A DNA stretch of 64,000 nt from Octopus vulgaris (taxonomy: Eukaryota), in assembly GCA_951406725.2 (NCBI GenBank), contig OX597840.1, positions 38,068,001-38,132,000 on the forward strand, given 5' to 3'. The notes under the pieces were generated by a model that had not been told where the DNA came from, searched no databases, and saw nothing but the letters and a program-made list of their open reading frames with translations. Positions 16,446-47,434 of this stretch are shown here, in pieces; the first letter of the stretch is position 1; each line of letters starts with the position of its first letter. The translations under genes were made by a program, and so were the position numbers.

Positions 16446-16507
<62 letters not shown>

Positions 16508-16691
16508 TAAAATATTAGGGAATAAATCCAAACTTACAGGGAAAAATCAGATTTAGGATTGAATCCAATTTTATAGTAAAAACCACTATTAGGCAAATCA
16601 AACAATGAAAAACTTAAGCCAATACATGAGATTAACTAATTTATATTATTTTAAATATATATCAAAATTATTAAAAGAAGATAATTAATAT

Positions 16692-16758
16692 AACACTACG
16701 ATCGTTTCATGGCTGTCCAATTCGTAAAAATTCGAGTTACAGTCATTCTTCAGGTGAT
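16692..16758 (-). ncRNA. Type I minimal hammerhead ribozyme motif, intact core
   Basis: Minus strand: AUCAC-CUGAAGA-AUGACUGU...ACAGCCAU-GAAA-CGAUCG-UA-GUGUU. Stems I and II pair with single mismatches, stem III is palindromic, and the cleavage triplet is GUA. Confidence 0.82.
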
Positions 16759-16814
16759 TGAAATATTTAACTTGGCGAGTTCATTGATTAAACCTCGCCA
16801 AGTTAAATATTTCA

Positions 16815-16881
16815 ATCACCTCAAGAATGACTGTAACTCGAATTTTTACGAATTGGACAGCCATGAAACGATCGTAGTGTT
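16815..16881 (+). ncRNA. Hammerhead motif, mirror copy with mutated core (CUCAAGA)
   Basis: Same sequence as the minus-strand copy except G5->C at 16822, so probably inactive. Confidence 0.7.
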
Positions 16882-17137
16882 ATAATAATTATCTTTTTTT
16901 AATAATTTTGATATATATTTAAAATAATATAAATTAATTAATCATATGTATTGGCTTAAGTTTTTCATTGTATGATTTGCCTAATAGTGGTTTTATCTCT
17001 AATTTAATATAATACATATAAAAATGTATATAAATTACTGATTTGGTTACAATTTCGACATATATACATTTAGGTATATCAATCTATCTATAAATCTATA
17101 TCTATGCATAGATATATATACATACATATATACATAC

Positions 17138-17189
<52 letters not shown>

Positions 17190-17261
17190 TAGGAAAAAAC
17201 ACTTTTTTATCTATTCAATAATGAAAATTTTCATTATACCATTTAGAAAATTTACATATAG

Positions 17262-17617
17262 AATGCACCAATTCACACAGCTAAATTGTTACTGAATGGC
17301 ATGAGGAACATTCTAGTGAAGTTGAAATTCGTAAGTGGCTAACACATTCTCCGGGTCTAAGTATTATTGAATAATCATGGTGCATTTTAGAAAAATTTGT
17401 AAGGAGACAATATCTCCACCATCATAACGACAAGAACTGGAGACTGTTTTAGTTGGGGAATGGACAAAAATTCCTTTGGAAACAATTCAAACTTTGTACG
17501 AGTCCATACCTCGTAGAATTCAAGCTGTAATTACTGCCAGACGCAGTTGTATCCCACATTAAAATAAATTTCTTTGAAATTTTTAAGATGTTTCCATTAC
17601 TTTTTCGAATACCTGTA
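17262..17617 (+). mobile_element. Tc1-family transposon 3' fossil (transposase C-terminus and right TIR)
   Basis: Translates with stops/frameshifts as NAPIHTA..EWHEEHSSEVEIRKWLTHSPGLSIIE*SW..GEWTKIPLETIQTLYESIPRRIQAVITAR, matching Tc1 DNAPxH / WPxxSPDLNxIE / SxPRRxxAVI. It ends ...CGAATACCTG|TA. Confidence 0.88.
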
Positions 17618-18163
17618 TATATTAGACCGACAGATAGATAGATAAATAGATACATAGATAGAAAGAGAGATAGATAAATACACACACAAACACATACACA
17701 CATATATATATATATAAATATATATACACAGGCACAGACACATACACACACATATGTATATTTATATGCATATATATATACATATGTATATGTGTGAAAG
17801 TGCATACGTGTGTTCGATCGTATGCGCACGTGTGAGTGATGCATTATATCTGATTTACGACCGCATTGATTGGATATGCTTAACTATGAATATTTAAGTG
17901 ATTTCTCCAATAAAAGATCAGTTCCTAGAAATGCCTGGGAGGAAGCTGTAAGTCTTTGCTCGGACACTCGTCTCACAACAGAAGGACACTCACAACAGAA
18001 GGAGCTGTAGGCGAAAAAAAGGGATTAAGCAAATCCTATCGTTTTGTCACTTTTTTAATAATTCTGCACATACCCATCGATATATATTTGTATGCATGCG
18101 CACACACACATTTACATGAACACACATACACACATACATACATACACACGCACACACACACAT

Positions 18164-18218
<55 letters not shown>

Positions 18219-18220
<2 letters not shown>

Positions 18221-18738
18221 AAAAATTGTAAAAATGCAGAATGCTAAATTGAAAGAAAATTTTAATGAAATGAGAAATTTATAAAATATATAAATATATA
18301 TTTATTCAGAACCGGTTTTCGTCCTGTTTTGCCAACATCCTAAATTAAACTAAACAACACATGGCCTTAATCCCATTGGATCCTAATACCTCAAGGTAAT
18401 TTTTTCGTGAACAATCATTAAACTCAAGATACACAACGAACTCACAATGTATCGGAGTACTTATTTTTAAATTTTTATACATATTTATTATTATTCTTTT
18501 GCAAAAAACAATGCAACTTCTTTTGCCCCTTTCTCATTTTTAAAAAGCTTTTTCACCTAACTATTCTTGATAAGTCAAACTATGACGAAAACCGGTTCTG
18601 AATAAAAATATATTTATATATTTTATCAATTTCTCATATCATTAAAATTATCTTTCAATTTAGCATTCTGCATTTTTACAATTTTTGTTTGCTTATCATT
18701 TCTCCACATGCCGTCAACACAACCCCACCATTTATTGA

Positions 18739-18740
<2 letters not shown>
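18219..18740. mobile_element. Fold-back Penelope-like element between two (TA)n tracts
   Basis: Inverted arms at 18221-18323 and 18584-18686, a ~55 nt tail on the right, and a hammerhead-like motif at 18562-18604. Confidence 0.7.
18562..18604 (+). ncRNA. Hammerhead-like motif with U3-A8 core (UUGAUAA)
   Basis: UAUUC-UUGAUAA-GUCA(aacua)UGAC-GAAA-ACCGGU-UC-(U)GAAUA. Stem II is perfect and stem III palindromic, but stem I is one nucleotide out of register. Confidence 0.55.
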
Positions 18741-18773
<33 letters not shown>

Positions 18774-18912
18774 CAAAACAAGCATACATACATATACGCA
18801 TACGCCAACGTCTATAGTTTTACCTTTAGAAGTTAAGAAGCGACCTTTATTATTTATACACGCACACACACACACACACAATTACGCACACACAACCACC
18901 CTTCTACACACC

Positions 18913-18957
<45 letters not shown>

Positions 18958-19059
18958 GTATATATAGGTGTGTATGTGTGTATATATATACGCATATGTG
19001 TGCGTATGCTTTTTTGGGTATATATATATTATCTGTTATACCCGACCGCCATAATTTCT

Positions 19060-19383
19060 GTAATTCTTCTACTGCGGACACCAAACCTGAAATACGGGTG
19101 GGAAGATTGGTCGGGTACATCGACCCAACTGCAACATTGCTGCGTATTTTAACAACCCAGAAAGGGTGAGGAGTAATGGAGATCTCGATGGAATTCGACC
19201 TCGGAAAATAAAGCTGGAATAAATGCCGCTAGCAACGATTCTGCCAGGTCACTGCTTTCGCCGAGGTCGACTTTGCCTTTCATCCTTTCGGGGTCGATAA
19301 ATTAAGTACCAGTTACGCACTGGGGTCGATCTAATCGACTTAATCCATTTGTCTCTCCTTGTTTGTGCCCTCTGACAATAATA
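19060..19383. mobile_element. Two abutting SINE family B pieces (old - copy 19060-19256, headless + copy 19258-19383)
   Basis: AACGATTCTGCCAGGTCAC is the reversed head. CGCCGAGGTCGACTTTGCCTTTCATCCTTTCGGGGTCGATAAATTAAGTACCAG is the body. Confidence 0.8.
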
Positions 19384-19655
19384 AACACACGCACTGGCAA
19401 TATTTCATTTGGTTATTGTTCATCAACTGCTTAACTATTTCATCATCTAACGATTCGATTAATTGTTTTATCAATAAGTTCATCAATAGATGAGTTATAT
19501 TTGTAAACGTCCTGATCTTGTATAGAGAAAAATATGCCATTGAAGAATTCAGAAATGGCGACGAACACAGGATGCAAATCCACAAGAAATTTCGCTTATT
19601 ATTCTCCCACCTCATCGCTATTTCATGATGTATGTATTGTCTAAAAACAAGCAGA

Positions 19656-20060
19656 TAGGCTCAGGAGTGGCTGTGTGGTAAGTAGCTTGTTTACCAACCA
19701 CATGGTTCCGGGTTCAGTCCCACTGCGTGGCACCTTCGACAAGTGCCTTCAACTATATCCTCGGGTCTACCAAAGCCTTGTGAGTGGATTTGGTAGACGG
19801 AAACTGAAAGAAGCCCGTCGTATATATGTATATATATGTATGTGCGTGTATGTTTGTGTGTCTGTGTTTGTCCCCCTAGCATTGCTTGACAACCGATGCT
19901 GGTGTGTTAATGTCCCCGTCACTTAGCGGTTCGGCAAAAGGGACCGATATAATAAGTACTGGGCTTACAAAGAATAAGTCCCGAGGTCGAGTAGCTCGAT
20001 TAAAGGCGGTGCTCCAGCATGGCCGCAGTCAAAATGACTGAAACAAGCAAAAAGAAAAAT
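19656..20060 (+). mobile_element. tRNA-derived SINE family C, full length
   Basis: AGGCTCAGGAGTGGCTGTGTGG (A box), GGTTCAGTCCC (B-like), internal (TA)/(TG) tract, tail GCTCCAGCATGGCCGCAGTCAAAATGACTGAAACAAG. More than 10 related copies in the window. Confidence 0.93.
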
Positions 20061-20236
20061 AAACAACCAGATCACATCAATGATCCCTGGCAGAACTGTA
20101 TCATTGTAAAACATGGAGTAACAATTACAGTAGCAAATGTCTAATGTCCGATGAATCAATATTACACATGACAAAATGTATGAAGAATTCACAGGTAAAA
20201 ATGATCAGTTTTGCCTTCTATCCTTCCGTTTTATCG

Positions 20237-20458
20237 TTGGCAGAAACGTTAGGACGCCGGGCGAAATGCATGGCCGTATTTCGTCTGCCGTTACGTTCTG
20301 AGTTCAAATTCCGCCGAGGTCGACTTTGCCTTTCATCTTTTCGGAGTCGATAAATTAAGCACCAGTTGCGCACTGGAGTCGATGTAATCGACTTAATCCG
20401 TTTGTCTGTCCTTGTTTGTCCTCTCTGTGTTTAGCCCCTTGTGGGTAGTAAAGAAATA
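20237..20458 (+). mobile_element. SINE family B monomer
   Basis: TGGCAGAAACGTTAG..GAGTTCAAATTCCGCCGAGGTCGAC..GTGGGTAGTAAAGAAATA. Confidence 0.92.
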
Positions 20459-20583
20459 TATCGTATGCAATGAGAAACGACATAAACACCGAATACTATT
20501 CATTCGGTTCCCTACATACCTTGGCGCAAATAAGCATAGGTTAAGAACCTTTAACAATTCTAAATATTCTATATTTATCGAGT

Positions 20584-20963
20584 GTGGAGGCGCAATGGCC
20601 CAGTGGTTAGGGCAGCGGACTCGCGGTCGTAGGATCGCGGTTTCGATTCCCAGACCGGGCGTTGTGAGTGTTTATTGAGCGAAAACACCTAAAGCTTCAC
20701 AGGGCTCCTGCAGGGGGGTGGGTGAAACCTGCTGTACTCTTTCACCACAACCTTCTCTCACTCTTACTTCCTGTTTCTGTTGTACCTGTACTTCAAAGGG
20801 CCGGCCTTGTCACACTCTTCGTCACGCTGAATCTCCCCGAGAACTACGTTTAGGGTACACGTGTCTGTGGAATGCTCAGCCACTTGCAGTTAATTCCACG
20901 AGCAAGATGTTCCGTTGATCGTATCAGCTGGGACCCTCATCGTCGTAACCGACGGAGTGCTCC
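20584..20963 (+). mobile_element. SINE family A, full length
   Basis: Colinear with 7758-8139. TSD ATTTATCGAGT at 20573-20583 and 20967-20977. Confidence 0.93.
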
Positions 20964-21549
20964 TACATTTATCGAGTACATTCTCTGTGCAATATTTCTC
21001 CCAGAATGAATCTCTAATTCCAGGAATTCAACTTCGGTGATTGTTTCTTTCTTATATAGTAATTTCGTGCTTATACATCAACACCTTCTCCGTTTTCTCT
21101 TCTCCTGTCTTACAAGTTTGCCTATCAGGACTTCTGAAATTTGTGTATTCATATAACTTCTCTTTCCATTTCTTCTTTGCTGGGCTTTCCCTGAAGCACC
21201 ACAAACGAACGATACGAACCTATCGCTTATATTTCCATATATTCATTCGCGTGTGATTGGCGTTCCTCTGTGTGTGTGTATGCGTGTGTTTGTGTGCGTG
21301 TGTTTATGTGTGTGTGTGTGTGTGTGTGTGATAGAGAGTGTGTGTTTTTGGAAAGTGAATTACATACGTCTACACACTTGTCAATCTTTCCCGCTCTCCA
21401 CACTCTACACACTTCCCTCTATAATCTCTTTCGAAATATATAGCGTTGTCTATATATACTTTTAAAGAAAACATCTCCAGGTGTACACACACATGCACAC
21501 ACACACATGCACACACACACATTCACACACCCACCCGTATATATATATA

Positions 21550-21590
<41 letters not shown>

Positions 21591-21828
21591 ATATAAATAT
21601 ATATATATACATATATATGTATGTATATATATAAATATATACATATACATGTGCATATATATATATATATGTATAGGCATGTGTGTATATATATATGTGC
21701 GTGTGTGTGCATAGACATATACATACATACGTATATATATATATATGTGTGTGTGTATATATATGAATGCATTTATGTATGTATACATGTATGTATATGT
21801 ATTTATATATATATGTGTGTGTGTGTGA

Positions 21829-21871
<43 letters not shown>

Positions 21872-22366
21872 AGGGTGGTTTTGTTTTGTTTTTTCCTGTA
21901 TACACCCCCCACCAATCCATCCTTACACACAACACACTTAGTATCATATGTAACAGTAAGTGAGTAAAATCTATGTTTGGTGGATTTTCTCTGTTATTGC
22001 TATTGTCCTCATCGTCGACGTCGCTCCAGTTATTGCCGTTGTTGTTGTTGTTGTTGTTCTTGTTGTTGTTTTTGGTGTTGTTGTTGTTTGCGTTGTTCTT
22101 CGTTTCTTCATATCTCTTGTATTCGTCAGACCATGACAGCTCTATGGAATATCGGAAAGATGCTTGTGAAATGCCTAAATGGAAAAATGGTTTTGGAATC
22201 TAAAGAGAAAAACAGACAGCAGCAGAAAACAATACTCGAAATAAATAAATAAAGAAAAATAAAATGAATAAATAAAATGAACAATATAGGATAGAAAACG
22301 GAAGCATAACAAAAACACGAAATAAAATATTAAAAATATGGAAAGAAATAAAACTGAAAACTGCGA

Positions 22367-22396
<30 letters not shown>

Positions 22397-22399
<3 letters not shown>

Positions 22400-22441
22400 C
22401 TTCTTCATGTGTAAGTTTTGTTTTCAATATTTCATATATAT

Positions 22442-22506
<65 letters not shown>

Positions 22507-22536
22507 TGAAAACAAGACTTACTCATGAAGAAGTTA
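22397..22536. repeat. ~39 bp inverted repeat bracketing a (TA)n spacer
   Basis: TAACTTCTTCATGTGTAAGTTTTGTTTTCAATATTTCATA / TATGAAATATTGAAAACAAGACTTACTCATGAAGAAGTTA, two mismatches. Confidence 0.9.
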
Positions 22537-22880
22537 GTATAAAGACCACAATGATATGTGTGTGTGTTAGAGAGAAAGTACATATATACATATATACATA
22601 CATACAAATATATAAATATATACGTGTATGTGAGTGCGTGTGTGTTTGTGCATAGGTATAGAAAAGCTAAATAGGTATAGTAAGTAATCTTCCGTTTGTG
22701 CACTAAAAGTTAAGAACACCCATATATATTGATGTGTGTGTGCGTGTGTGTGTGTGTGGGTGTATGTATATTTTTGTGTAGCTAGAATTATACACATACA
22801 CCTGTACATATACGTATTCACACTTGGCTATGTTTATGTAAAGTATAATATATATATATATATAAATACGTATATATATA

Positions 22881-22960
<80 letters not shown>

Positions 22961-23076
22961 GACTATATATGTCTGTTTGTGTACATATACGTATTCTTAC
23001 ATGGCTATGTGTATGTAAAGTGTAATATATATATTAATACGTGTATATATATGTGTGTATGTATATATACATATAA

Positions 23077-23122
<46 letters not shown>

Positions 23123-23819
23123 AGTATGTATGTCTGCGTTTGTGTGTGTGTATGTATATGTCTGAACTGTGTGTATTCACGCACAAATATCACCAACGTA
23201 TATTTTCTGTCATATTCCAGAGAACCTTCATCTGAAAATTCAAATTTTTACTTGTTTTCCACGTCGTTTTCCTCCATATTGATAATGTTTTTCTTCCATC
23301 GCAGTGAGTTTCACGAATTTTCGATCTGGAATTCTTTGAAACCTGTTAAAATGGAAAGTGGAGCATCGTTGAAGAAATAGAACAGATGAGAAATATAATA
23401 GAATTAACATTCCGATTCCACAGTTAAACAACTGTCATGAACCACTTAACGGCGGGAATTCGATTACATCGTTGGATCTAACTTCTTTTTCTCTTTGAAA
23501 GCGATGCCTACGATGCACTCTTTCCGCGTATAAACGGATTCATTTGACCTTCTACGATGATACTGACATAAAGTTAGAAGCAGCCTGTTTTGCATGCTAA
23601 ATCTCTATGTCGCGTATATTCTTTATTGCGAATTACTCAGAAGACCATTTATAATTCCGGTTGCCAACGGTTGGTGAGAATGATGCAACGAACGGCTCAG
23701 ACTGAAGATACTTTGTAAAGGTTATTCGGGGAGGGTAAAATGTATCTGTGATCTTCGGTATTTACAAAGTCACTGAGATTATTGCAAGGATGAGTTGGAG
23801 ATTTACTCAAACCAAGGAC

Positions 23820-24230
23820 CTTTTTCTAGCTCTCTACAAACGAATAAAGTCTGTTGAAAAAAATTCCATGCACCATATTTTTCCGTTACATAAAGGTCTT
23901 TGCTACTTTTGAAGTATCCGTTGGCGACGACGTGTTCTCCACTGAGCGGAACCCATGAACTGTCTATTGTTCTTCAATCCAGTTATATCCCAGCTTTTTC
24001 AGCGCTATCTGAATGTTAAATCCCCCTTGCTCAACATTTTGTGTATCAATTTGCTGCCTGTCATGTCCTCCAGGGAAGACCTGGAGGACATGACAGGCAC
24101 ACCTATTGATAAATCTGTCAATTTTCTTCGTTTTAAAGACTTATCAAGGATCATTTTAATCCCTCTTTCAAAATGACAAGCGATCCTATCTTATTAAAGC
24201 TGTAGGACAATATGATTAACAAATCTTATG
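23820..24230 (-). mobile_element. Possible highly decayed Tc1-like transposase N-terminal fossil
   Basis: Minus-strand pieces read PG(L)P(W)RT (GRPR-like), PLSGEH/RRQRI and W..FFS in Tc1 order, across frameshifts. Confidence 0.35.
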
Positions 24231-32629: not shown

Positions 32630-33162
32630 TGTGTCGATTATATCGACCCCAGTGCGTAACTGGTACTTAATTTATCGACCCCGAAAGGACGAAAGGCAAA
32701 GTTGACCTCGGTGGAATTTGAACTCAGAACGTAGCACCAGCTGAAATACTTATTTGTTTACTACCCACAAGGAGCTAAACACAGAGAGGACAAACAACGA
32801 CAGACAAACGGATTAAGTCGATTACATCGACTCGAGTGTGAAACTGGTTCTTAATTTATCGACCCCTAAAGATGAAAAGCAAAGTCGACCTCGGCGGAAT
32901 TTGAACTCAGAGCACAACGACAGACGAAATACCAATTTCTTTACTACCTACAAGGAGCTAAACACAGAGAGGACAAACATGGACAGAGAAACGGATTATG
33001 GCGATTACATCGACCCCAGTGCGTAACTGGTACTTAATGTATCGACCCCGAAAGGATGAAAGGCAAAGTCCTCGGCGGAATTTGAACTCAGAACGTAACG
33101 GCAGACGAAATACAGCTACGCATTTCGCCCGGCGTGCTAACGATTCTGCCAGCTCACCGCCT
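32630..33162 (-). mobile_element. SINE family B head-to-tail trimer
   Basis: One head (33162-33115) followed by three body units. Junctions at about 32930 and 32750 join ..GTAGTAAA(G/C)AAAT to GTATTTC. Confidence 0.9.
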
Positions 33163-33522
33163 TTGTGCTTATTGCCAAATACGTGTATATTCATGTACGC
33201 AGTGCCTTTATCAACGGCTCTTAGTTTGGTCAAAACACGAGCGTTAATTTTGCATATTTATACAAGACACGTTTCTCGCATTATTATAATAACGGGAATC
33301 TGTTGAGAACAGAATTAATTCAAGGCAACTGAAATAACATCACATGATGAATAATATGTAATCGCTTGAATATAAATCATAAACTGAGATTGCATATGCA
33401 ATGATGATATAAACTGAAGTGAATAATTCGGATCTAATGCAAGAATAATACTTCGCCCAAGATTTTAGAAATGTGCTCAATGAACAGTAAATGTTCTCGT
33501 GTGTATGATTGAGTATATGCTT

Positions 33523-33593
<71 letters not shown>

Positions 33594-33594
<1 letters not shown>

Positions 33595-33825
33595 TTAATC
33601 CAAACAAGAAAACACAGAAAAAAAGAGAAAAAAAAAGAAAAAATGAGAAAAAAACACAGCAACGCAGGACGTGGAACAATTAAAGTATTATTGACGCTCA
33701 GGAAAGAAGGGAAGAAGGAGGGTTTAACTTTTCGAGCGGAGCTCTTCGTCGGAAAACAAGGAGAAGGAAAGATCCCAAGGAGGGAAGATAGAGGAGAAAA
33801 TATTTGAGCTGGCAGTGCTCAAGAG

Positions 33826-33828
<3 letters not shown>
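33594..33828 (-). mobile_element. Penelope-like terminal fragment with degenerate hammerhead (33723-33755), between (GA)n and (TA)n
   Basis: Minus strand: UUU-CCGACGA-A-GAGC(ucc)GCUC-GAAA-AG-UU-AAA. Confidence 0.65.
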
Positions 33829-33911
<83 letters not shown>

Positions 33912-34377: not shown

Positions 34378-34758
34378 TTCTTTTACTTTTTTCAATCATT
34401 TAACAGCAGCCATTCTGGAGCACCACCTTTAGTCGAACAAATCGACCCCAGGTATTATTTATAAGCGTAGTATTTAGTAATTTTTTTTTGTTTTGTCGTA
34501 CCGCTAAGTTACGGGGACGTAAAAACATCAGTATCGGTTGTCAAGCGATGAGGGGGTGCCAACACATACACAAACACACACACACACATATATACGACGT
34601 GCTTCTTTCAGTTTCCGTCTACGAAATCCACTCACAAGTCTTTGGTCGGCCCGAGGCTATAGTAAAAGACACCTGCCCAAGGTGCTATGCAGTGGGACTG
34701 ACCCCGGAACAATGTGGTTGGTAAGCAAGCTACTTACCACACAGCACTCCTGTGCCTA
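34378..34758 (-). mobile_element. SINE family C, full length
   Basis: Reverse complement of 19656-20060. Confidence 0.9.
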
Positions 34759-35580
34759 TGTAAAAATCGAATAGATTTATATTGGTAGAAAGCCTATACT
34801 GATGTATAAAAATATATTAGCATCTTCGAAGGTGTATATTGAAGGCATCGTCCTGCGTACGGATTAAAAGTGTTGCTAAAAAGATATTTAAAAAAAATAT
34901 TAAACAATAAAATTATAAATTCTCGCGAAAAGGTACATAAAGAATTGTTTGAGCATCCAGATGGAAGGGAAGGTTTCCAACGATTATATGTGATACTCTA
35001 TCAAGAATTAAGTGGTGATACTACGACCGACGGCCTAACCAAATTTTAGACATTGCTTCCTTCATTAGGGAGAATGTATTAGTTAAGGATTCACATCTCA
35101 TATATTATCCTAATGAGTAAATGGGTGTTTGGTTTTATAAACAATACTACGAGTTAGCAGGAAGAAGAGATGTTATAGCAAGAATTGCGGGAAGAAAATT
35201 TAGAATATATGGCAGATTATAAGCAAGTATTTATTCACAAAGAGGTAGGTTAGGGTGGGCGAGTATGAGTATTAATTGGACTATAGCCAATTATAAAGTT
35301 TAATGATGAATCTATCCAGATTCATCAAAATGCTTATGTGTTCAATGATATATGTTGTTGGATGAACATATTCAATACTATAGAGTTATGTCGATGGAGA
35401 ATGCTTATAGATGCTTTAATACATATTCTACATACACGCGTAATTGTATTATACGGAGGGGCTTCTGATATTATAAACCAAGATAATGAATATTGCTATA
35501 TTCTTTAGTTTAAGTTCCTGTGTATATGTGGCTGGCGTTGCTGTGAATTTATATTTTAAGTAAAATACAAATGAGTCCTA

Positions 35581-35626: not shown

Positions 35627-35842
35627 AAGGGAAAGTTTACGAACATAAACAAAAGACGAAGGCAGGTGGTGTACAAACAAACAGATGTATTAGTATAAGG
35701 CTCAGAAATAGAAAAATGTATTTTACGTTTCGAGCCTCCGCTCTTCTACAGAAAGGGACACAGAAAAAAACAAGGTGAGAAACAAGGAGAGAAAAACAAT
35801 GTGTGTAGTAGCTAACGATTTATCATGGCGTCTGACTTGGAC
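35627..35842 (-). mobile_element. Penelope-like terminal fragment in (TA)n with hammerhead-like motif (35721-35754)
   Basis: Minus strand: UUU-CUGUAGA-A-GAGC(ggag)GCUC-GAAA-CG-UA-AAA. The same family occurs at 55441-55566 and partially at 32120-32185. Confidence 0.7.
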
Positions 35843-35854
35843 ATATATATATAT

Positions 35855-36090
35855 AGTGCTTGATCAAAAGTACAGTACTGCATTTATTTACTAACCTAAT
35901 CTTAGTGCTAGTCCTTACAGACAATCGGTTTCATCAGCCCGAAGTTCATAGTTTCATCAGCCCGAAGTTCCCCGACGGTAGTCCATAGTGCCGAGTTATG
36001 AGTGTATAGCTTACTAAATAAACACAATACTATACGTTTAATCAAGCACAATATATAAGCTGACATTGTAGAATACCTGTGCACTATAAT

Positions 36091-36093: not shown

Positions 36094-36149
<56 letters not shown>

Positions 36150-36522
36150 CAATGAAAATACAGGTGATGATATATATACGAGAATATATTTTAAGCACGA
36201 CAATCGTTTCGACACATCTAGCATACATTCCTCTTTGGTGGGACACTCAACAAGTGGTTCAGGAGCAGATGTAGGAAGATATAATTATATATATGAAGGA
36301 GAATTATATGGGAAGATGGATAAAATGACATATTTTCTTCCAGTGCACAACAATTGTTTCTATACATCTACACTCACTTAGTACCTTGTTGTGATTATGT
36401 TATTACCATATTGGCTAATTACTAGCATCTATCAAAAGTATAAATGCATAAACATGCTACTTACGTTTGAGACAGAAAGTCTGACACTTAGGAAAACGGT
36501 CTACACCTTTGTAGTCGTTGTA

Positions 36523-36615: not shown

Positions 36616-36679
36616 TACAACAAGAATAACAGCTACAATATCAGCATAAGAACCATCAACTCGTATGTGTCAGGAAATA

Positions 36680-37080: not shown

Positions 37081-37130
<50 letters not shown>

Positions 37131-37447
37131 GTACAAACACATATTGTGGTACTCGAACGTATATCTATTTCCGAATGTCCGTATGTATGGGTGTGTTTCT
37201 ATGTGTGTGTTCCTATTTCTTTCAAGCCAGTGGTTCAATATTCACGGATCAGTGATGAGAGAATGAGGAATTAAATCTACTGAATACAATCGTCTTGATG
37301 CAATAAATAGCAAATGTTATTTCGATTCTTGTATACCGACCAATATAATGTCATTATTTCACCAATGCATTTTAGCTTTGCCATCACATATTCGCCGTCT
37401 TCCCTCGAATTAGTAGAGATATCCGTCTACTTACAATTCCATATACA

Positions 37448-37504
<57 letters not shown>

Positions 37505-37603
37505 TTATATATATACATATATATATATATATACCCATATATAATTACGCACACACAGAGACATATATATATATATGTATGTTTGTGTGCGTCATTATGT
37601 ATG

Positions 37604-37662
<59 letters not shown>

Positions 37663-38604
37663 GTATATACACATATATGTAATCGTATGGTTCATCAAAG
37701 CTAAATCCATAAATATGTTGGCGAAGGCCTCTGAGTCAATGAAAAGATAACTTCCATTCTTTATGGTAGAAAACCCGCCATATTTATTTATTCGCTGCTT
37801 TGTGGTGTTTGGAGATATAATGAGTTTTGCTGATGCGTTTTTAATTTTAACGAAATAAGTAAATGAATGGATGAAGGCATTAAGATAGAAGAAGCAGTTA
37901 AAGTGAGGAAAGAGAGTATGAAAGAATGTAATTTGGAAATTGAAAGACAAAAGAAGGAGAATTAAGAAGCCGAGAAAGGAAGATAAAGAAACGATCGTTC
38001 GTTCTATTTCGAGAAAGAATAAAGGAATCAATGCAGTTAATAAGATGGAAGAAAAGTGTGAGAGAATAAGGTTGAAGGAAACAATGTATGAAAAGAATGA
38101 AGGGAAAAGAAACAAAGAAAGAGCGAAACAAATAAATGAAAATGAATATATAAATAAGGAGCGAATGAAAAGGAATCTACGAAATAGTTAATGTCCGGAA
38201 GGAATGAGAGAGAAAGAGAAAGAGTGAGAGAGAGAGAGGAAGGAGGGAGAGAATGAGATAGAAATAAAAGTAAGAAGAATTGTGATAGAAGAAACGAGAA
38301 GTAAATAGATATGAGCTTTGGAGAATATTCTGAAGAATGAAAGAAGAAAAACAAAAGGTAGGACATTCTGGGGATTCGTAAATTCTGCTTTACCTTGCAC
38401 TACAAAGTATTGATTTCAAAATATGCCTCATCTCCGCTTTTTGGGTCCGTTTATCTATCTTTGCTAATAGAATTGTTCCAAATTTTGGTTTAGAGCTCCG
38501 TATTTATAAGGAAAGAAGGTCAGTCGATTACACCGGCATCATTAAGTGCTGAGTAATTTAAGGCTGCGAAGACTGTTTTAACAGCATCTCTACTTTTGCC
38601 CTGT

Positions 38605-38992
38605 GTGGAGGCGCAATGGTCCAGCGGTTAGGGCAGCGGATTCGCGGTTGTAGGTTGCGTTTTCAATTCCCAGAAACACGCGTTGTGAGTGTTTATTGAG
38701 CGAAAACAGCTAAAGTTCCACGAGGCTCCGGCAGGGTGTGTTGGCGAACTCTACTGTACTCTTTCACCACAACTTTTTCTCACTCTTTCTTTCTCTTTCT
38801 GCTGTACCTGTATTTCAAAGGGCCAGCCTTGCCACACTCTGTGTCACGCTGAATCTCCTCCAAGAACTATCTTAAGTGTACACGTGTCTGTGGATTGCTC
38901 AGCCACTTGCACGTTAATATACGAGCAGGCTGTTCCGTGGATCGGATCAACTGGAACGCTCCTCGTCGTAACCGACGGAGTGCCAACAACAA
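38605..38992 (+). mobile_element. SINE family A, full length and older, with (AAC)n tail
   Basis: Colinear with 7758-8139 and flanked by ACTTTTGC direct repeats. Confidence 0.9.
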
Positions 38993-39109
38993 CACTTTTG
39001 CTCCGTTTAGCCAAAAGACAATGCATCAACAAAAATTGTCAGGGTTTGTATTTTGATACGTAAATAATGAGGGCTACATTCTGGGATATCAAGAGAGAGG
39101 AATAGTATA

Positions 39110-39320
39110 AACAGTTACAAATTTTAGCACAAAGCCAGCGATTGCAGAAGATGACTTTGTTACATTGACCCTATTTCATGACTGGTACTTAATTTAGCGA
39201 CCCCAAAATGCTGTCCGGCAAAGATGACATCGTCGGGATTTAAGCTCGGAACGTGGAGGGACGAAGGAAATTCTGGCAAGCATTTTGTCCTACATAAATA
39301 CATATCTGCCAGCTCACAGG
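39110..39320 (-). mobile_element. Decayed SINE family B
   Basis: ACTGGTACTTAATTTAGCGACCCCAAAATG and TCTGCCAGCTCAC landmarks. Confidence 0.65.
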
Positions 39321-39439
39321 TTTTTCTCCATAATGAAACAGCACACGTAATTTCCATTCTATGCACAGATATTATCATTCACTTTGGCTTAACGTTCATG
39401 TAATTAAATATATCCATCCGTGACCAACACATATTTGTT

Positions 39440-39810
39440 GACATCTTTCACCTCTAATCTTTTATTTGATTTAGTTTTTAAAGCGCCCATGCTGGGGTAT
39501 TGCTTTCAAGAAAGTCGAACGAATTGACCCCACTACATAATTTTTCAAACTGGTACTTTGTCTATCGGGCTTTTTTACCAAAACAAGTGGTGGGGTGGGA
39601 CAGAGAAACACACGCATATACACACAAACATATATATTCATATACGATACGTTTTTTTTTTTAGTTTTTATCTATCCAATCATTCCCAACGCCTAGTTTG
39701 ACCAAATACTTTAGCGGAAGACACCCAAAGTGTGATACAATGGTACTGAACCCGGAACCATGTGGCTGGGGAGCAAACCTCTTACCATTGCCACAAGGAG
39801 ACGCCTGCAC
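39440..39810 (-). mobile_element. Decayed SINE family C
   Basis: GGTACTGAACCCGGAACCATGTGG and CCATGCTGGGG landmarks. Confidence 0.7.
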
Positions 39811-40380
39811 TTCTAGCGTGATACATTTTAAAATTTTCCTTTTTGTTGTTCTTCGATTTCCATGATGTTTTTGCACCACGGTACGAGCGAGAGTATTCCC
39901 AGTTGAATATCATTTTTCCTGAACCGAAACATGTTGGTCGTCCTTCGTTGTCTCTAAAGAAAGCGACACAATGTGAGGTGCCGGTTGTTCGTGTCATTTA
40001 TTGATCTTAATAGCTTATGAGTTTAGAATGTAAATATTTGCTATGAACCGCCGGTGGATATCTGATAATTTTACAGCATTATTTATATACGTAACTCGGG
40101 CGATCTGGCCGAGGGGGATAACGCTTAGTTCTAATTCGACAAAGTTTACTTTGGTTTTGATAAATAAAATTAAACACATTTTATTACAGAAATAACTAAT
40201 CTCCCATAATTTCTAATTCTGTAACCCCTTTGTTCTCTCTGAATCACTTATAAAAAAGAGGCCGGGAAAAGAGGCCAGTCCAATCTTTCCACAGCCATTA
40301 TGTAAACATATTACCTATATCATCTGTGAAGGCATCAAATTTCTTCTCGTGTTCTACGAACTCCAGTTATACCCAGCAAT

Positions 40381-40582
40381 ACTCTTTACTCTTTTACTTG
40401 TTTCAGTCATTTGACTGTGGCTATGCTGGAGCACCGCCTTTAGTCGAGCAAATCGACCCCAGGACTTATTCTTTGTAAGCCTAGTACTTATTCTATCGGT
40501 CTCTTTTGCCGAACCGCTAGGCTACGGGGACGTAAACACATACCAGCATCGGTTGTGAAGCGATGTTGGGGGACAAACACAG
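40381..40582 (-). mobile_element. SINE family C 3' half
   Basis: ACTCTTTACTCTTTTACTTGTTTCAGTCATTTGACTG..GGGGACAAACACAG. Confidence 0.9.
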
Positions 40583-42134
40583 CAATATGTACATCTTTGA
40601 CATTAAACTTAAAAATTAATTATGAAGAGCAGAATTCGTTGCGTCAGTGTATTACGATTAAGTACTGAGATAAAATTCCATTTCTGTGAGATTCGATATT
40701 TCTGCTTTCCAACGTCGATAAAATGTCTACTCTTATCGCGGTTGTCGTCGTTTACCGCTTATCACCAGCAGTTTAACCTTGAATCAATAGACATATATGA
40801 TCCGTAGCGTTCTTCTCATGATTAATTTTCATTGCAATCGGGCATTGCGCATTTAAAAGTGCATTGCACAAAATATTCAATTCCTTCTATTAAAGACGTT
40901 ACAATACAATCAAAGTAGGTTATTATTATTATTTTTTTTTTTTTTTTCTATTTCTATCATGTCGAGAAGCCTTGTAGAAATGGTCTTAGAAATGAAATAC
41001 TTACTACTTAGAAATAATATACAGGTTTTGATTTAATAATCTACAGGGAAAATTTCCCAGAATGCGATTTATTCTTTTGCCAATGCTGGAAATCAATATT
41101 TTTCTCAAGTTTTGCAAAATATCTGTAGTTTATCTTCTGTATACAATTATTGCAAGCGAGGCAAGAGGTTTTTACATTGACAAAGCCATTAATTTGAATA
41201 TTTCATTTCTGTCTCAGCAGGTCAGCTTGTCACAAACCTGGTGAAGATCTTGAAATTAATCTTGAATTTCTTGTAATCTTACCATTTTTTCTTCCAATTC
41301 GATGATAGTTTCTCACCATGGTGCAGATGTGTTCTACATCTAGGGAACATATCAGTGTATTTTTGACAGATAATTTGATGTAAAGACGAAATACGTGCAA
41401 GCTACACACCGCTGTATCAGCATTCAGTCGTGAGCTGCATATAACAATAGAAAAGTTTTATATTAATATATAGCAGAACAATACATAGTGAAATCTCCAT
41501 TTTTTTTTTCTTTGCGGTTTACTTACAGAACGAAGGACGGTGTTTATGACGTCTTAAAGTGCTTCTGGGACTGACAGGGAGCGGCGAACTATGATGCATG
41601 GTTTTCTGTATGAAGAAGCATTGCCAATTATCCCCATCTACATCGACGCATTGAGTTGAGAACTTGCAACGTAATTGATTCCAGTAAAATCACGCAAGGC
41701 ATAGGAAGAAGTTTAAACAGAGTAACTAAAACTCTACCGTTTCCGAACAAAGAAAAAAAAACGGTCGCCACAGGAACGGCTTCAGTACAGTTGCTGTCTA
41801 TAAAATTTCACCTACTAAATATTAGGTCATGCCTAGGTTATGATAGTGGCGACATATCCAAAATTAAGCGGTGTGAGATCGAATCCTGAATTATACCATT
41901 TGGAAGGTATAACACTCATCGCACGTTTATATCGCGACAACGGTGAAGAATAAGAGTAGGACATTTATGCACCCCAACCCATTAACAGCTTTCCCGGGAC
42001 AACTGCCCCCAATGAACGGAAAGCTCAAATAAATGGTGCAAATAAATACTAATAAAATAATTAGAATGTTACACACATACTTTTATTAATTATTAGCAAT
42101 GACACAGTATTAATATCTAATTTTAACGAATGCG

Positions 42135-42215
42135 AAGGCGGCTAACTTGTCAGAATTCTCAGTACTCCGGACAAAATACTTAGCGGGATTTCGTCCATCT
42201 TTGCGTTTTCTTTTC
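42135..42215 (+). mobile_element. SINE family B head fragment
   Basis: AAGGCGGCTAACTTGTCAGAA..GGACAAAATACTTAGCGGGATTTCGTCC. Confidence 0.55.
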
Positions 42216-42285
42216 AAATATAAATGAAATGTCAAAAGTTGTCATGTGTAAGTTTTGGTGCAACCTTTATATACATATTTATAGT

Positions 42286-43633
42286 CACGAGGTTGCGCTG
42301 AAAAGTTCATAACCTGGCTATAAAGGAGTGGCCCTACAGACGTGAGATTTTGAATGCATTAATTTCAACCCCTTTATTAATATTTGCGGGGGTTAGTTCC
42401 GAATAAACTGATGACTTACTGTACATAGAAGGTTTCGAAGGCAAGTAGTAGTGGGCAAAATTTAGCATTGTGGTGTTATTATGTGTTATTATAATAGAAA
42501 TAATGAGCTTCCAGGAACATTCCTGTTGATGTTGTTACATTAGAGGAAGACGCTCCGGCATTTTTAACTGCGCAGAAATGGGCAGGTGTAATTAGGAGAG
42601 GAAGGGAAATGTATTGAAGATGACCAGAGGTTTAGACGTTATGCGACTACTACCGAAGGGAAGTATTCTTTTCTAGTCTAGGCACAAGAGCCGAAATTTT
42701 GAGGGAGGGAGCCAGTCAATTATATCGACCCCAAAACGCAAATGCTTCTCTAATTTCTCAACCCTCAAAGGATGAAAAACAAAGTCAACCTCAGAACGTA
42801 GCGGCAGACGAAATACCTATTTCTATACTACCCACAAGGGGCTAAACACATAGAGGACAAACAAGGACAGACAAACAGATTAAGTCGATTATATCGACCC
42901 CAGTGCATAACTGGTACTTATTTAATTGACCCCGAAAGGATGAAAGGCAAAGTCGACCTCGGCGGAATTTGAAATCAGAACGTAACGGCAGACGAAATAC
43001 CACTAAATATTTCGCCCGGCGTGCTAACGTTTCTGCCAGCTCGCCACATCACCGAAGGCAAATATCGATCGTGTTCGCCACAGGCTAATGGATGACAGGC
43101 GATTGAATATAAATAAAAATAGCCAATGCTATTAGCATAACTTTTGAGAGAGCTGCACATATTCTGAAACAATAAACTCGGAACAGTCAAAAAGCGCCGC
43201 AGTCTGATTACATCACCAGAAAATCTAACATTGCTGCAGAAGATCCAACTGGTTTCTTGAACGTTTACTAAGGATTACTGATGTGTTCCACACTTTGAAC
43301 CACAGACAAAGAGACAGAGACAATCCATGCAGTGGGACCCCTTACACACACACACACACACTTTTCTCTTGATTTGAGCCCATTTGCTTACCTATTAACC
43401 ATCAAGGAAACACATTTGGCTGGGGGCCAGTATCGTCGTGAAAGTAACGTTATATATGCTGTTGATGACTTTGTTTTACTAACAAGATGAAATTATCTTC
43501 ACTAATGTGATCCAAGCAATGCAACACCGACGGAAGAGTGTGTGTGCGCTGCAAGGGGTCACATTTTGAAACATAAACTTTATCTCGTCACATTCCATGA
43601 CAGTATCTTTGGACTTTTTAGCCGACCTTCTTA
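42286..43633 (+). mobile_element. Mariner transposon fossil, internally deleted and interrupted by a SINE B dimer
   Basis: Imperfect TIRs CACGAGGTTGCGCTGAAAAGTTC / GGACTTTTTAGCCGACCTTCTTA. Peptides LEEDAPAFLTAQKWA..RRGR..EDDQR..TTT, NIDRVRHRLMDDRRL..ANAISI and HFEPQTKRQ..SMQW match mariner transposase N-terminal motifs. Confidence 0.85.
42661..43047 (-). mobile_element. SINE family B dimer inserted in the mariner fossil
   Basis: Head at 43047, junction at about 42816 (GTAGTATAGAAATAG|GTATTTCGTCTG on minus), flanked by ACCGAAGG direct repeats (42652-42659 and 43051-43058). Confidence 0.9.
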
Positions 43634-43663
43634 TATATTCACACATTTAAATTCTATTTATAT

Positions 43664-43702
<39 letters not shown>

Positions 43703-43786
43703 TATATATGTGTGTGTGTGTGTGTGTTTGTGCTCGCGCACGTGTGTTTCGTGTAGTTATATGTTTATATATCTATAAATATATAT

Positions 43787-43943
43787 AGCATGGCTGTGAG
43801 GTAAGCAGTTTGCTTCTCAATCGCGTTTCCGGGACCAGTCCCACTGCGTTGCATCTTGGGCAGTTGTCTTCTACTATAGCCTCGGGCCGACCAAAGCCTT
43901 GTGAGTGGATTTGGTAGACGAAAACTGAAAGAAGACTGTTGTA
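43787..43943 (+). mobile_element. SINE family C 5' half
   Basis: GCATGGCTGTGAGGTAAG..CCGACCAAAGCCTTGTGAGTGGATTTGGTAGACGAAAACTGAAAGAAG. Confidence 0.88.
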
Positions 43944-43969
43944 TACTCACACACACACACGCACACACA

Positions 43970-44006
<37 letters not shown>

Positions 44007-44021
44007 TTATATATATATATG

Positions 44022-44209
44022 TAAAATTAAATAAGGGTAGAAATTGATATTAATCAATTAAGACCAGTGGCCTAGCATATTTTAAAATTAATCCGAAGAT
44101 TAAAAAATTTATACATACAAAATTTAGAAGAATGACCACTAATAGTGGACAGCCTGTATGCTAGATATAGACGTCAAACTCGCCATGGTCATTCCTCTAG
44201 ATTTTGTAT
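44022..44209. mobile_element. Short fold-back element in (TA)n with PLE-like architecture
   Basis: A left tail, then 24 bp inverted arms at 44115-44138 and 44186-44209, with (TA)n on both sides. No hammerhead is visible. Confidence 0.45.
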
Positions 44210-44509
44210 ATATATATATATATATATATATAAACGCATACAATCACACGCACATACATATATGTATATATCCATACAATGGGCATACGTACACATATTT
44301 CTCAACAACTTCTTTAAATGTATTGAGCAGCCATTTGTTTTTGAAGAAGTACTTTGTTTTTCTTAAAACAAATGGAAAAAAATATGCTGAGTTTTCTTTA
44401 TATTTCTCTCAAGAAAACTTAAGAATAAATATTCATTTTCCTCCTTTAAATTTTAATGTGTTACTCTTTACACATTAATAAATGCCATAAGTCTATGTAT
44501 GTATGTATG

Positions 44510-44535
44510 CGTCTGTCTATCTATCTATCCGTCTG

Positions 44536-44601
<66 letters not shown>

Positions 44602-44655
44602 CATCTATCCATCTATCCATCTATCTATCTAGCTACTTACCTTTCTATCTATCAC

Positions 44656-44720
<65 letters not shown>

Positions 44721-44751
44721 GTATCTATCTATCTAGCCATCTATATGTCTG

Positions 44752-44836
<85 letters not shown>

Positions 44837-44861
44837 ATTTATCTATCTAGCCATCTATCTG

Positions 44862-44945
<84 letters not shown>

Positions 44946-44960
44946 CCTACCTACCTATTT
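44510..44960. repeat. (TCTA)n tetranucleotide array
   Basis: Direct inspection. Confidence 0.95.
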
Positions 44961-45674
44961 ACTTGACTATCTGTCTGTCTTTCTGTCTGTCTCTCTATCT
45001 AATTATCGATCGATATTTTACTGTTTTTAACTAAATTTCTGCTCCTATTGAAATTTACACATAAGATCAATTGTATATATTTTCTCTGTGGAATCAGGCT
45101 GGGAAATGCACAAAGATTTCTGCTGAGGAAAATCAATTTACTCTTCTAATAATGGACCGTGTTTGCTATCTCAAGAATGGAGAAAATTGAATGTAAGTCT
45201 TTAAGCGAGTTACAATATCGTAGAAGGAGAAAAAAATTCGAATCGCTAATACGTAGTGAACGGTAATGTCCAAAACTATAGCACACTGCATCTGAGCAAT
45301 CCAGATCAGAACCCAGCTGTTATTTCTGTGGTTGTGTATCACTTTCAAAAAGTAGATACGCCATCGAGGCACTGTCTGTTATGGGATGAAGAACATGTAA
45401 TATATGTATGGATATAATTTAAACGTCAGTATCAAAGCAATTTAACCATTTCTCCCCGAAAGCGCAGTCATCTATGTCTAGGCAGACACTTCGTTTTGAC
45501 CAAGCTTGACAAAATTATGTCCTATGTTTGTCAACGAAAACTGCATACGAATTCAGTACATTGAAAAACCTGGCCAGTAATGTTCTTAAAATTGTTACAG
45601 GCGACTGTAACTTTTCTCCAAAATTCCGGGCGGCTGCAAAATATGTGATCTTTATGCGTACATGCATACATACA

Positions 45675-45708
<34 letters not shown>

Positions 45709-45859
45709 CATACATACATATATACATGCATACATACGTGTATATATGTGTATATGTGTGTGTACTTAAATGAATCTATATATATGTGTATACGTACATA
45801 CACATACATACCTACACAGAAACACACGCACGCACACACAGACACAGACACCACGTACC

Positions 45860-46192
45860 CACAAGAATGTGGAGATTAATTACGGTTCATTTCAGTCCAT
45901 TACCACTAAATATTTGAGTACGAGACGCGTGTCTGCCAAGATTGTGCCAAAACTGCTTTCAACTGACCAAAAAGACACACGGGGTTTCAGTCGCATAAGA
46001 TCTCCTTGATTTTGTAGAGAACGATGAAAACCTTTTGGAAACTTTGCGTATGTCTCAGACGTACAAAGTTAAACCTTAGTGCGCATGCACAGCTGAGTTC
46101 AAGATGTACCTGTGGCGAGCTGCTGTTTTTCTCTTCATGCTTCAGCTTCGTTAATATGCCAACAGTCCGGCTACTTATTGATCAGACCACGT
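45860..46192 (+). mobile_element. Mariner fossil (WVPxxL linker region joined to a right end)
   Basis: VEINYGSFQSITTKYLSTRRVSAKIVPKLLSTDQKDTR..DLLDFVENDENLL matches mariner LGMRRVSAKxVPKLLT. Ends in TIR-like CTACTTATTGATCAGACCACGT. Confidence 0.82.
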
Positions 46193-46242
46193 GCATGTAG
46201 AAACAGTGTATAAACCCTAAAAATTCACGCCATAATTGCCCA

Positions 46243-46316
46243 CGGGTATATGGCGTAGTGGTTAAGAGCGCGGGATACTAACCCCAAGGTTCCGAGTTTG
46301 ATTCCAAGCCGTGACC

Positions 46317-46368
<52 letters not shown>

Positions 46369-46589
46369 TAATAACAATAATAATAATAATAAAAATAATA
46401 TCGAAAAATACCTTAGCAATGAGAATCCAGGATCGAAATTTCCCCCAAGACACCTGATGAAGGCTGGAGGGTATATCAGCCGAAAGGTTGCGTTAACAAC
46501 AAACAATAGGACAAATATCCGTCAAATGTAAATAATGTAAATAACGTAAATAATGTACATAATTCCTTCTCTCTTAAACATAGAACTGT
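46243..46589 (+). mobile_element. tRNA-headed SINE-like element carrying a hammerhead ribozyme
   Basis: A box TGGCGTAGTGG (46251-46261), B box GAGTTTGATTCC (46294-46305), (AAT)n linker, hammerhead at 46449-46494, then (ATGTAAATA)n repeats. Confidence 0.75.
46449..46494 (+). ncRNA. Type I minimal hammerhead ribozyme motif
   Basis: GACAC-CUGAUGA-A-GGCUG(gaggguauau)CAGCC-GAAA-GG-UU-GCGUU. The core is exact and stem II is a perfect 5 bp. Stem I has one mismatch, and stem III has GG where PLE hammerheads usually have CG. Confidence 0.78.
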
Positions 46590-46646
46590 CTGTTTGCTCA
46601 TAAGTGGGATGAAAAAAATTCTACGCCGTCATCCAATTTGAGATAC

Positions 46647-46682
<36 letters not shown>

Positions 46683-46685
<3 letters not shown>

Positions 46686-47430
46686 TATGAGTAACAATGA
46701 AGGGTGAAATTAATTAATTTGGAACAATTATCAATTACACCAAGTAGTCTTCGGCATGTAAAAGCCTCATTCGAGGAAAATTTAAGTAATACTAAGCAAT
46801 TAAGGGTTTAGCAACGAATTGCCTTACCACACACCGAATTTAGAAATAGCAGTCAAAGAGATTATAGCTATTTCTTCTACTAAAAGGGAGATCACAGTAA
46901 AGGCACAGCATTTGAAAGGCAAACACAAACAGGTAAAAGAGAATGAATTAACGGCAATCTATCATACAGTTTTAAGTCACCTACGGACTTGGCTACACGC
47001 GGGTGGGAAGGGACTGGTGACACAAGCTTTCATTCATACTTTGAATTTGGTGATACTAGCTGTGGCTTCTAGCTCGCTCTGATACTGAGTTGAGTTGGTG
47101 CCTTCTAGTATCTCAAAATTCAATATTCAATCATTCATGATTGTTTTGTATCCTGCGCTGATGAAAGAAGAAGTCTGGGTAAAGTAGAGTTATCTAATTC
47201 TTATGCTTTCCTAAGACTTGATCTCGAAACGTACGTCCGTAGGTGACTTAAAACTGTATGATAGATTGCCGTTAATTCATTCTCTTTTACCTGTTTGATT
47301 TTGCCTTTCAAATGCTGTGCCTTTACTGTGATCTCCCTTTTAGTAGAAGAAATAGCTATAATCTCTTTGACTGCTATTTCTAAATTCGGTGTGTGGTAAG
47401 GCAATTCGTTGCTAAACCCTTAATTGCTTA

Positions 47431-47434
<4 letters not shown>
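46683..47434. mobile_element. Fold-back Penelope-like element between two (TA)n tracts
   Basis: Near-identical ~200 bp inverted arms at 46789-46988 and 47235-47434 (also visible as twin ORFs MPYHTPNLE.. on opposite strands). A ~105 nt left tail and a hammerhead at 47152-47243. Confidence 0.85.
47152..47243 (+). ncRNA. Type I hammerhead ribozyme motif with long stem II
   Basis: CCUGCG-CUGAUGA-AAGAAGAAGUCU...AGACUUGAUCUC-GAAA-CGUACG-UC-CGUAGG. Stem I is 6 bp, stem III is palindromic, GUC triplet at 47235-47237, and the base of stem II is imperfect. Confidence 0.85.

Follow-up and report, generated by a model that had tools for sequence, protein, structure and literature searches.

The window analysed here is a 64,000-nt stretch of the Octopus vulgaris genome (assembly GCA_951406725.2, 2.8 Gb, the source of all genome-wide counts below; contig OX597840.1, forward-strand positions 38,068,001 to 38,132,000), and its subject is four fold-back insertions, named E1 (at 16505), E2 (18219), E3 (46683) and E4 (44022). 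Simple repeats occupy 21.6% of the window, and neither a tRNA gene nor a credible long open reading frame (ORF) was found within it. A general repeat search was dominated by microsatellites. Among the best 150 of 533 rows of an Rfam scan there was no hammerhead; these were microRNA-family matches, nearly all on simple repeats, with 0 at gathering score. The original prediction, made from the letters of the window, had described the fold-backs as a diverse population of non-coding ribozyme retroelements that colonises (TA)n tracts and is linked to Penelope-like elements (PLEs).

Alignment places the arms and one-sided tails where they had been predicted, with small shifts (Table 1). The E1 arms form a single 433-nt palindromic alignment (16571-16779/16793-17002, 94% identity), the right arm extending to about 17014 instead of the predicted 16994; the E2 arms (18221-18331/18576-18686) share 111 bp at 94% identity and the E3 arms (46789-46988/47235-47434) 200 bp at 99%. 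The short arm of E4 measures 24-32 nt and its tail 85 nt, and across the families the one-sided tails span 45-105 nt. The predicted targeting of (TA)n holds as well, with 74 of 80 arm ends adjoining (TA)4 against a background of 10.6%. Each of the four families is present at high copy: first-look candidates, figures that are not copy numbers, came to 2019 (E1), 1827 (E2), 1886 (E3) and 2496 (E4), and 40 per family were scored.

The fold-backs lie in (TA)n tracts and are head-to-head (back-to-back) ends of PLEs or of tandem ribozyme repeats. They are a mixture of two retrozymes (E3 and E4), one truncation (E2) and one spliced leader (E1), and not one new non-coding class. Their shared architecture is an insertion footprint and not the unit of an element, because junctions vary between insertions and many copies are one-armed; a fixed fold-back master or miniature inverted-repeat transposable element (MITE) was rejected. 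The predicted non-coding ribozyme retroelements are thus found in E3 and E4 and not in E1 and E2, which are parts of coding PLEs; the statement that none encodes protein is true of the window copies and not of the families of E1 and E2; and random truncation of PLEs, which the prediction had named as the contrary case, applies to E2 and not to E1, which is not a separate element either. Inversion, tail, (TA)n bias and hammerheads are already published as PLE traits. The interest lies in the spliced leader copies and in a rule of one short and one long arm, because these make the PLE copying mechanism testable.

Table 1. Fold-back arms, tails and hammerhead motifs of the window (positions counted from its first nucleotide)
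Feature	Position	Strand	Description
E1 left arm	16505-16779	-	exon 2 preceded by 13 nt of exon 1; reaches long site B, with 28 nt deleted across site A (alignment to L149 exons)
E1 one-sided tail	16505-16570	-	66 nt, site A to site B; 28-nt deletion at tail edge
E1 type I hammerhead	16697-16753	-	intact core, palindromic stem III; predicted cut after 16697
E1 right arm	16778-17014	+	entire 29-nt exon 1 (16778-16806) and exon 2, ends at short site A
E1 second-arm hammerhead	16820-16876	+	G5C core mutation (CUCAAGA), predicted inactive
E2 short arm	18219-18323	-	ends at site A; only 3' half of hammerhead
E2 long arm	18322-18740	+	final 419 nt of RT + GIY-YIG PLE, ends at site B
E2 hammerhead variant	18567-18598	+	U3-A8, core UUGAUAA, 4-bp stem II, palindromic stem III
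E2 tail	18687-18740		54 nt, one-sided
E4 long arm	44022-44186	-	3' 165 nt of 529-bp tandem monomer, stops short of hammerhead
E4 short arm	44186-44209	+	ends at site A
E3 left arm	46683-46988	-	starts near the predicted cut site and ends at site B
E3 tail	46683-46788		106 nt, one-sided
E3 right arm	46988-47434	+	447 nt of 587-bp tandem monomer, ends at site A
E3 type I hammerhead	47158-47237	+	intact core, long stem II, palindromic stem III
33594 single arm	33594-33830	-	common family; minimal-hammerhead-like motif, U4C, stem III non-palindromic
35627 single arm	35627-35850	-	high-copy family; motif 35751-35724 resembles a minimal hammerhead but has U at core position 6
35855 fold-back	35848-36057	.	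old, low-copy, 51-bp arms; hammerhead unsupported
55441 arm	55441-55566	-	shorter copy of 35627 family, cut within core

Parent families and hammerheads

Coding parents with reverse transcriptase (RT) and GIY-YIG were located for E1 (by motifs) and E2, which bears out the proposed link to PLE machinery. The E1 parent consists of exon 1, a 905-nt intron and exon 2, which carries the hammerhead and the two sites, A and B, at which arms end; an ATG follows about 58 nt past site B. Its ORF, of at least 680 aa, has RT and GIY-YIG-type motifs and reads SDKT, CTCRDKTKC, CYLC and CRH, with KWK at the position of the RWK motif of the Hydra clade. The repeat unit is 4,967 bp in locus L373 (about 4.97 kb), and partial tandems, the pseudo-LTRs (long terminal repeats), are found in L370, L372, L373, L375, L383 and L385. 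Long frames of E1-type PLEs in L364, L365, L368, L381 and L383 run to 597-681 aa, some of them off the locus end, and show asparagine-rich stretches between RT and endonuclease, as in rotifer Penelope (PMC3846280).

E2 is the randomly 5'-truncated 3' end of an autonomous RT + GIY-YIG PLE. Upstream, several of its copies run on into a reading frame in which RT motifs, a Cx4Cx2C linker (CARPNCGTC) and GIY-YIG follow one another. Other PLE families lie within a few kb of E1/E2 copies (L142:3844-4743 on the minus strand, L210:3457-4407, L199/L202, L212), including a second Neptune-like ORF, another GIY-YIG ORF and further Hydra-like pieces, which suggests clustering in shared (TA)n targets.

E3 forms head-to-tail arrays of up to five 587-bp units with one hammerhead per unit, while E4 has a unit spacing of 529 bp in L139 and partial second units elsewhere. 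The longest stop-free frame over two units is 84 aa in E3 and 76 aa in E4. By this tandem, ORF-free, hammerhead-bearing structure both fit the non-LTR retrozymes, and they likely ride on PLE machinery; E1 and E2, in contrast, are not short ORF-free tandem units, both continuing into coding PLEs. E4 had been described as lacking a hammerhead, but its family has one, which lies farther upstream than the window copy reaches. A short 85% match to the long-site end of E3 lies beside a TA tract at 36103-36156.

A strict hammerhead scan returned one motif in the window versus 0.02 in shuffles, a scan permitting the U3-A8 core two intact-core motifs versus 0 in 30 shuffles, and a scan with one core mismatch four motifs versus 0.5 ± 0.8. 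The E3 motif (fold z = -2.7) was missed by these scans because its stem II starts with an A-C mismatch where G-C is expected. Monomer folds of the E1, E2 and 35627 hammerheads are no better than shuffles, as is expected of dimer-type motifs, and are evidence neither way. Since stem II is long, with 38 nt in E1 and 61 nt in E3, these two hammerheads are not minimal as had been supposed, and about 5-6 credible motifs amount to roughly one per 11-13 kb instead of the one per 7 kb first estimated. The expected conservation of the cores is borne out, CUGANGA being present in 183 of 199 E1 motifs and UUGANAA, with U3 and A8 together, in all listed copies of the E2 family; U3-A8 is a compensated hammerhead variant (PMC4209133), and pairs of opposite-strand motifs 100-700 bp apart have also been reported in the same paper. 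Stem III is palindromic in 175 of the 199 E1-type motifs and is another palindrome in a diverged subfamily. The diverged relatives of E1 in L361, L364, L365 and L367 have a much shorter stem II, and some have a different 6-nt palindrome as stem III. This swap suggests that selection may maintain a dimer-type hammerhead.

Intron-free leader copies of E1

A search with 111 nt of the arm separated the E1 copies into a short kind, whose members share their 5' end, and a long kind preceded by different sequence. The 29 nt that open the short kind recur in the long kind 905 nt farther upstream, where GT follows them, and the intervening gap ends in AG. In the right arm of the window copy this 905-nt GT-AG intron is replaced by an exon joint exactly at 16806/16807, and the arm starts at the first base of exon 1. 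On these features, E1 is the 5' leader of an autonomous Hydra-type PLE with the intron precisely absent, and the window copy was likely made from a spliced messenger RNA (mRNA), copied twice from one RNA.

Counted by exact match across the genome, spliced junctions number 418, while the acceptor is retained at 182 places and the donor at 36; reversed-pattern controls gave 0. Intron retention, which is a described habit of PLEs and not a strict criterion, therefore holds for the long E1 copies and not for the majority form. The spliced copies have a sharp 5' limit: in 84 loci taken from the first 100 of the 418 junction sites, all 85 distinct spliced arms end 15-36 nt above the joint, 84 of them within 31 nt, with piles at 24, 19 and 26-29. 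Among copies in which the start of the intron is present, 30 of 33 extend at least 165 nt upstream, and in two the 5' end falls within exon 1. Each of four subfamily tags is found both in spliced and in unspliced copies, so splicing recurred. One insertion, L370, is spliced in its 5' leader, continues through the ORF and still has the intron in its downstream repeat. Private variants are common to these parts; the leader has just 7 nt of exon 1 left, which bear that copy's private variant.

A trans-spliced leader was dropped as an explanation, the same 29 nt being present in cis above the GT donor. One contig of a presumed-RNA run skips 906 nt with GT..AG ends and, as spliced DNA copies exist, is uninformative on expression. 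Literature searches, in which subscription papers are poorly covered, found no report of spliced genomic PLE copies.

Two end sites per family and a proposed copying model

In each of the families E1 to E4 the arm ends cluster at two sites. Where both ends of a two-armed insertion lie at simple repeat, one arm is short and the other long in 71 of 73 E1, 11 of 11 E2, 10 of 11 E3 and 7 of 7 E4 insertions (99/102 in total); the E2 and E4 queries fixed one end and the first E1 two-arm query favoured both, and in an E1 set chosen by the junction pattern alone the same arrangement is seen in 42 of 43. The two arms of E1 insertions also agree with each other. They belong to the same subfamily in 46 of 46 pairs, and by splice state there are 18 pairs with both arms spliced, 3 with both unspliced and 0 mixed, a looser rule giving 20 with both spliced. 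Under independent sampling at 70% spliced, the chance of such pairing is about 2 in 10,000 (a hand estimate with the 6 pairs of the two-arm query left out).

The structures of the families, the coding parents found for E1 and E2, the precise GT-AG intron loss, the 5' limit of the spliced copies and the one-short-one-long rule can be accommodated in one reading, to which we assign a probability of about 0.78: the fold-backs are made by a two-subunit PLE RT-endonuclease that primes from both cut strands at two fixed sites of one RNA, that RNA being a spliced mRNA for the copy at 16505. The endonuclease would cut (TA)n on both strands, whereupon sites A and B would each start one complementary DNA (cDNA), and both cDNAs would extend toward the 5' end of the RNA before being joined head to head, the hammerhead usually remaining uncut in the template. 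Two pools of RNA may serve, namely spliced mRNA and a read-through RNA that is mostly unspliced. In the spliced E1 mRNA, sites A and B would lie in the 5' untranslated region (UTR) only, so that only leader copies of 240-320 nt could arise; full-length copies would need RNA reading through into the next repeat and, such RNA being mostly unspliced, would retain the intron. E3 and E4 probably borrow the PLE protein in trans. In vitro, a PLE protein, a predicted dimer, extends both strands from two RNA sites without a need for hammerhead cleavage, and the two RT start sites define the tail (PMC11167929). We incline, with less assurance, to the more general proposition that intron retention in PLEs is set by which RNA has priming sites downstream of the ORF, that a single dimer makes two copies of one RNA, each from its own fixed site, and that an antisense template is ruled out for the E1 family.

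Several observations weigh against this two-site reading. A wider recount of E3 over 19 loci found 15 short/long, 1 short/short and 3 unclear cases, and the concordance of the E1 arms could also come from gene conversion, single-source bursts or subfamilies active at different times. The transcription start site of E1 is predicted from DNA ends. One spliced copy, in L101 (from a separate search), extends about 65 nt above the joint, and L168 (which stops at 29) and L371 retain the intron yet begin with exon 1 or within it, which means that transcripts from the start site are copied in unspliced form as well. Of 8 tandem copies whose upstream repeat could be read, 7 keep the intron there too; position alone thus does not decide splicing, and a strict cap-proximal form of splicing is weakened. 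As to the proteins, Pfam matches neither RT nor GIY-YIG in two E1 ORF pieces, the assignment being by motifs; the matches of the E2 parent to RVT_1 (E=0.0011) and GIY-YIG (E=0.00086) are both under the curated cut-offs; and no autonomous partner PLE for E3 or E4 was found among the loci retrieved.

Self-priming on an antisense RNA template has been proposed to explain both head-to-head arms and intron retention, unspliced sense RNA not being excluded (PMC3846280). Palindromic junctions are indeed common in E1, and the intron is kept in most long copies. Spliced E1 copies nevertheless argue against the idea for this family, because these signals would not direct splicing of an antisense RNA, and they outnumber the intron-retaining copies and occur on both arms; the two fixed outer ends, one per arm, would also go unexplained. 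It is contradicted for the short E1 copies, and we regard it as very improbable. If instead the short E1 were a separate master resembling a short interspersed nuclear element (SINE), which shed the intron in a single event and then multiplied independently with the fold-back as its unit, then the fixed 5' end, the hundreds of copies and the similar junction palindromes in the best matches would follow. Such a master is very improbable given that all four tags occur in both forms, that short and long arms have no fixed differences, and that junctions vary and many copies are one-armed.

It might also be imagined that all four fold-backs are independent non-coding ribozyme elements derived from self-cleaved circular RNA. 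The ORF-free tandem monomers of E3 and E4, with a hammerhead per unit, are in keeping with this, as is, weakly, the start of 4 of 59 E3 arms within 5 nt of the cut site versus about 1 expected. As an account of all four it is very unlikely, being refuted for E1 and E2 by their membership of coding PLEs, and E1 copies pass through an uncut hammerhead to the start site. Two arms drawn from two separate RNAs, paired via the palindromic stem III, would make sense of the prevalence of that palindrome in E1-type motifs and of its replacement by another in the diverged subfamily. The absence of mixed spliced/unspliced and of cross-subfamily pairs makes this unlikely, to a lesser degree than the other alternatives, since two RNAs of one source locus would still fit.

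Other repeats of the window and comparison with known systems

Further hammerhead-like arms and repeats are present in the window. In the family of the 35627 and 55441 arms, which gave 3614 first-look candidates, most copies have U at core position 6 (CTGTAGA in 26 and CTGTNGA in 38 of 68 related motifs), and the hammerhead is otherwise a regular minimal one (L173-L197); it may be a variant that is active, or else a dead ribozyme that has reached high copy number. A CA-rich part lies upstream in the longer copies of this family, and a parent was not found in L173-L197. The sequence at 35855, predicted to be a single arm with a hammerhead-like motif, is the old fold-back listed in Table 1. A dispersed repeat with a 183-184-bp internal tandem unit occurs at 32633-33163, 50394-50810, 42714-43047, 7314-7544 and 20238-20461, and a 380-bp dispersed repeat of 85-96% identity at 2367-2751, 7756-8139, 20582-20961 and 38603-38983, with a shorter piece at 5893-6045. 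A SINE-like dispersed family is found at 4183-4531, 19653-20057, 34378-34762, 43791-43945, 47539-47869, 54810-54962 and 55556-55749, and two of its copies (54811-54962 and 55556-55710) face one another around the 55441 arm. Near-perfect palindromes of 45 nt (24055-24099) and 52 nt (37544-37595) lie outside masked repeats.

Inverted truncated PLE copies with a 30-40-bp tail at one end, shorter than the tails of E1 to E4, and a (TA)n bias have been described, with the significance of intron retention called unknown (PMC8557442); how inverted ends and tails form and why introns stay are called open both there and in PMC3846280. Penelope transcripts are mostly spliced, and selection against intronless elements has been suggested (PMC2377424). 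The words 'hammerhead' and 'ribozyme' do not occur in the accessible portion of PMC13282606. Spliced leader copies by the hundreds point to a sense, spliced RNA template and offer exact substrates for an in vitro test, and such an origin would help explain the known keeping of introns by PLEs. The one-short-one-long rule ties two-site priming in vitro to genomic products and extends it to retrozymes. If the proposed mechanism is true, the genome records for each family the start site, the splice sites and both RT start sites, in hairpins that are easily taken for MITEs, SINEs or microRNA precursors.

E3 and E4 resemble the metazoan non-LTR retrozymes (PMC7229834; bioRxiv 10.64898/2026.07.22.740005) in their ORF-free tandem structure, one type I hammerhead per unit and proposed PLE dependence. 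They differ from those of PMC7229834, whose main text contains neither 'inverted' nor 'microsatellite', in having two fixed end sites and head-to-head arrays in (TA)n, and their monomers are longer than the usual 150-450 bp. E2 is a candidate Neptune-type PLE (PMC8557442; CX2-5CxxC linker), similar to that group in its RT, Cx4Cx2C linker and C-terminal GIY-YIG. Its copies, like theirs, are inverted and 5'-truncated, lie in (TA)n and bear a tail on one side; the linker of Nematis is similar too. Unlike Neptune-type elements, E2 has a U3-A8 hammerhead about 700 nt past the stop codon and a tail of about 45-55 nt.

Like the Hydra clade (PMC8557442), the E1 parent has the DKT motif and a CxCx5C linker; CxxC and CxH surround the conserved E and N of its endonuclease, and it carries a hammerhead and targets (TA)n. 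Members of that clade are generally <3 kb, whereas the E1 unit is about 5 kb, and E1 is further set apart by its 905-nt 5'-UTR intron, a tail of about 70 nt versus 30-40 and abundant spliced leader copies. It is not Hydra-1_Obim, whose protein and hammerhead differ as far as the visible parts of the supplement show. With respect to copying, E1 may be compared with Poseidon PAc of Anolis (PMC11167929) and Penelope of D. virilis (PMC2377424), for which, in the accessible text, no intron-free genomic copies were found reported, in contrast to the intron-free majority of E1. In both systems, as in E1, a 5'-UTR intron lies near the start site with a hammerhead next to the intron end, both strands are extended, and the tail corresponds to the distance between two RT start sites.

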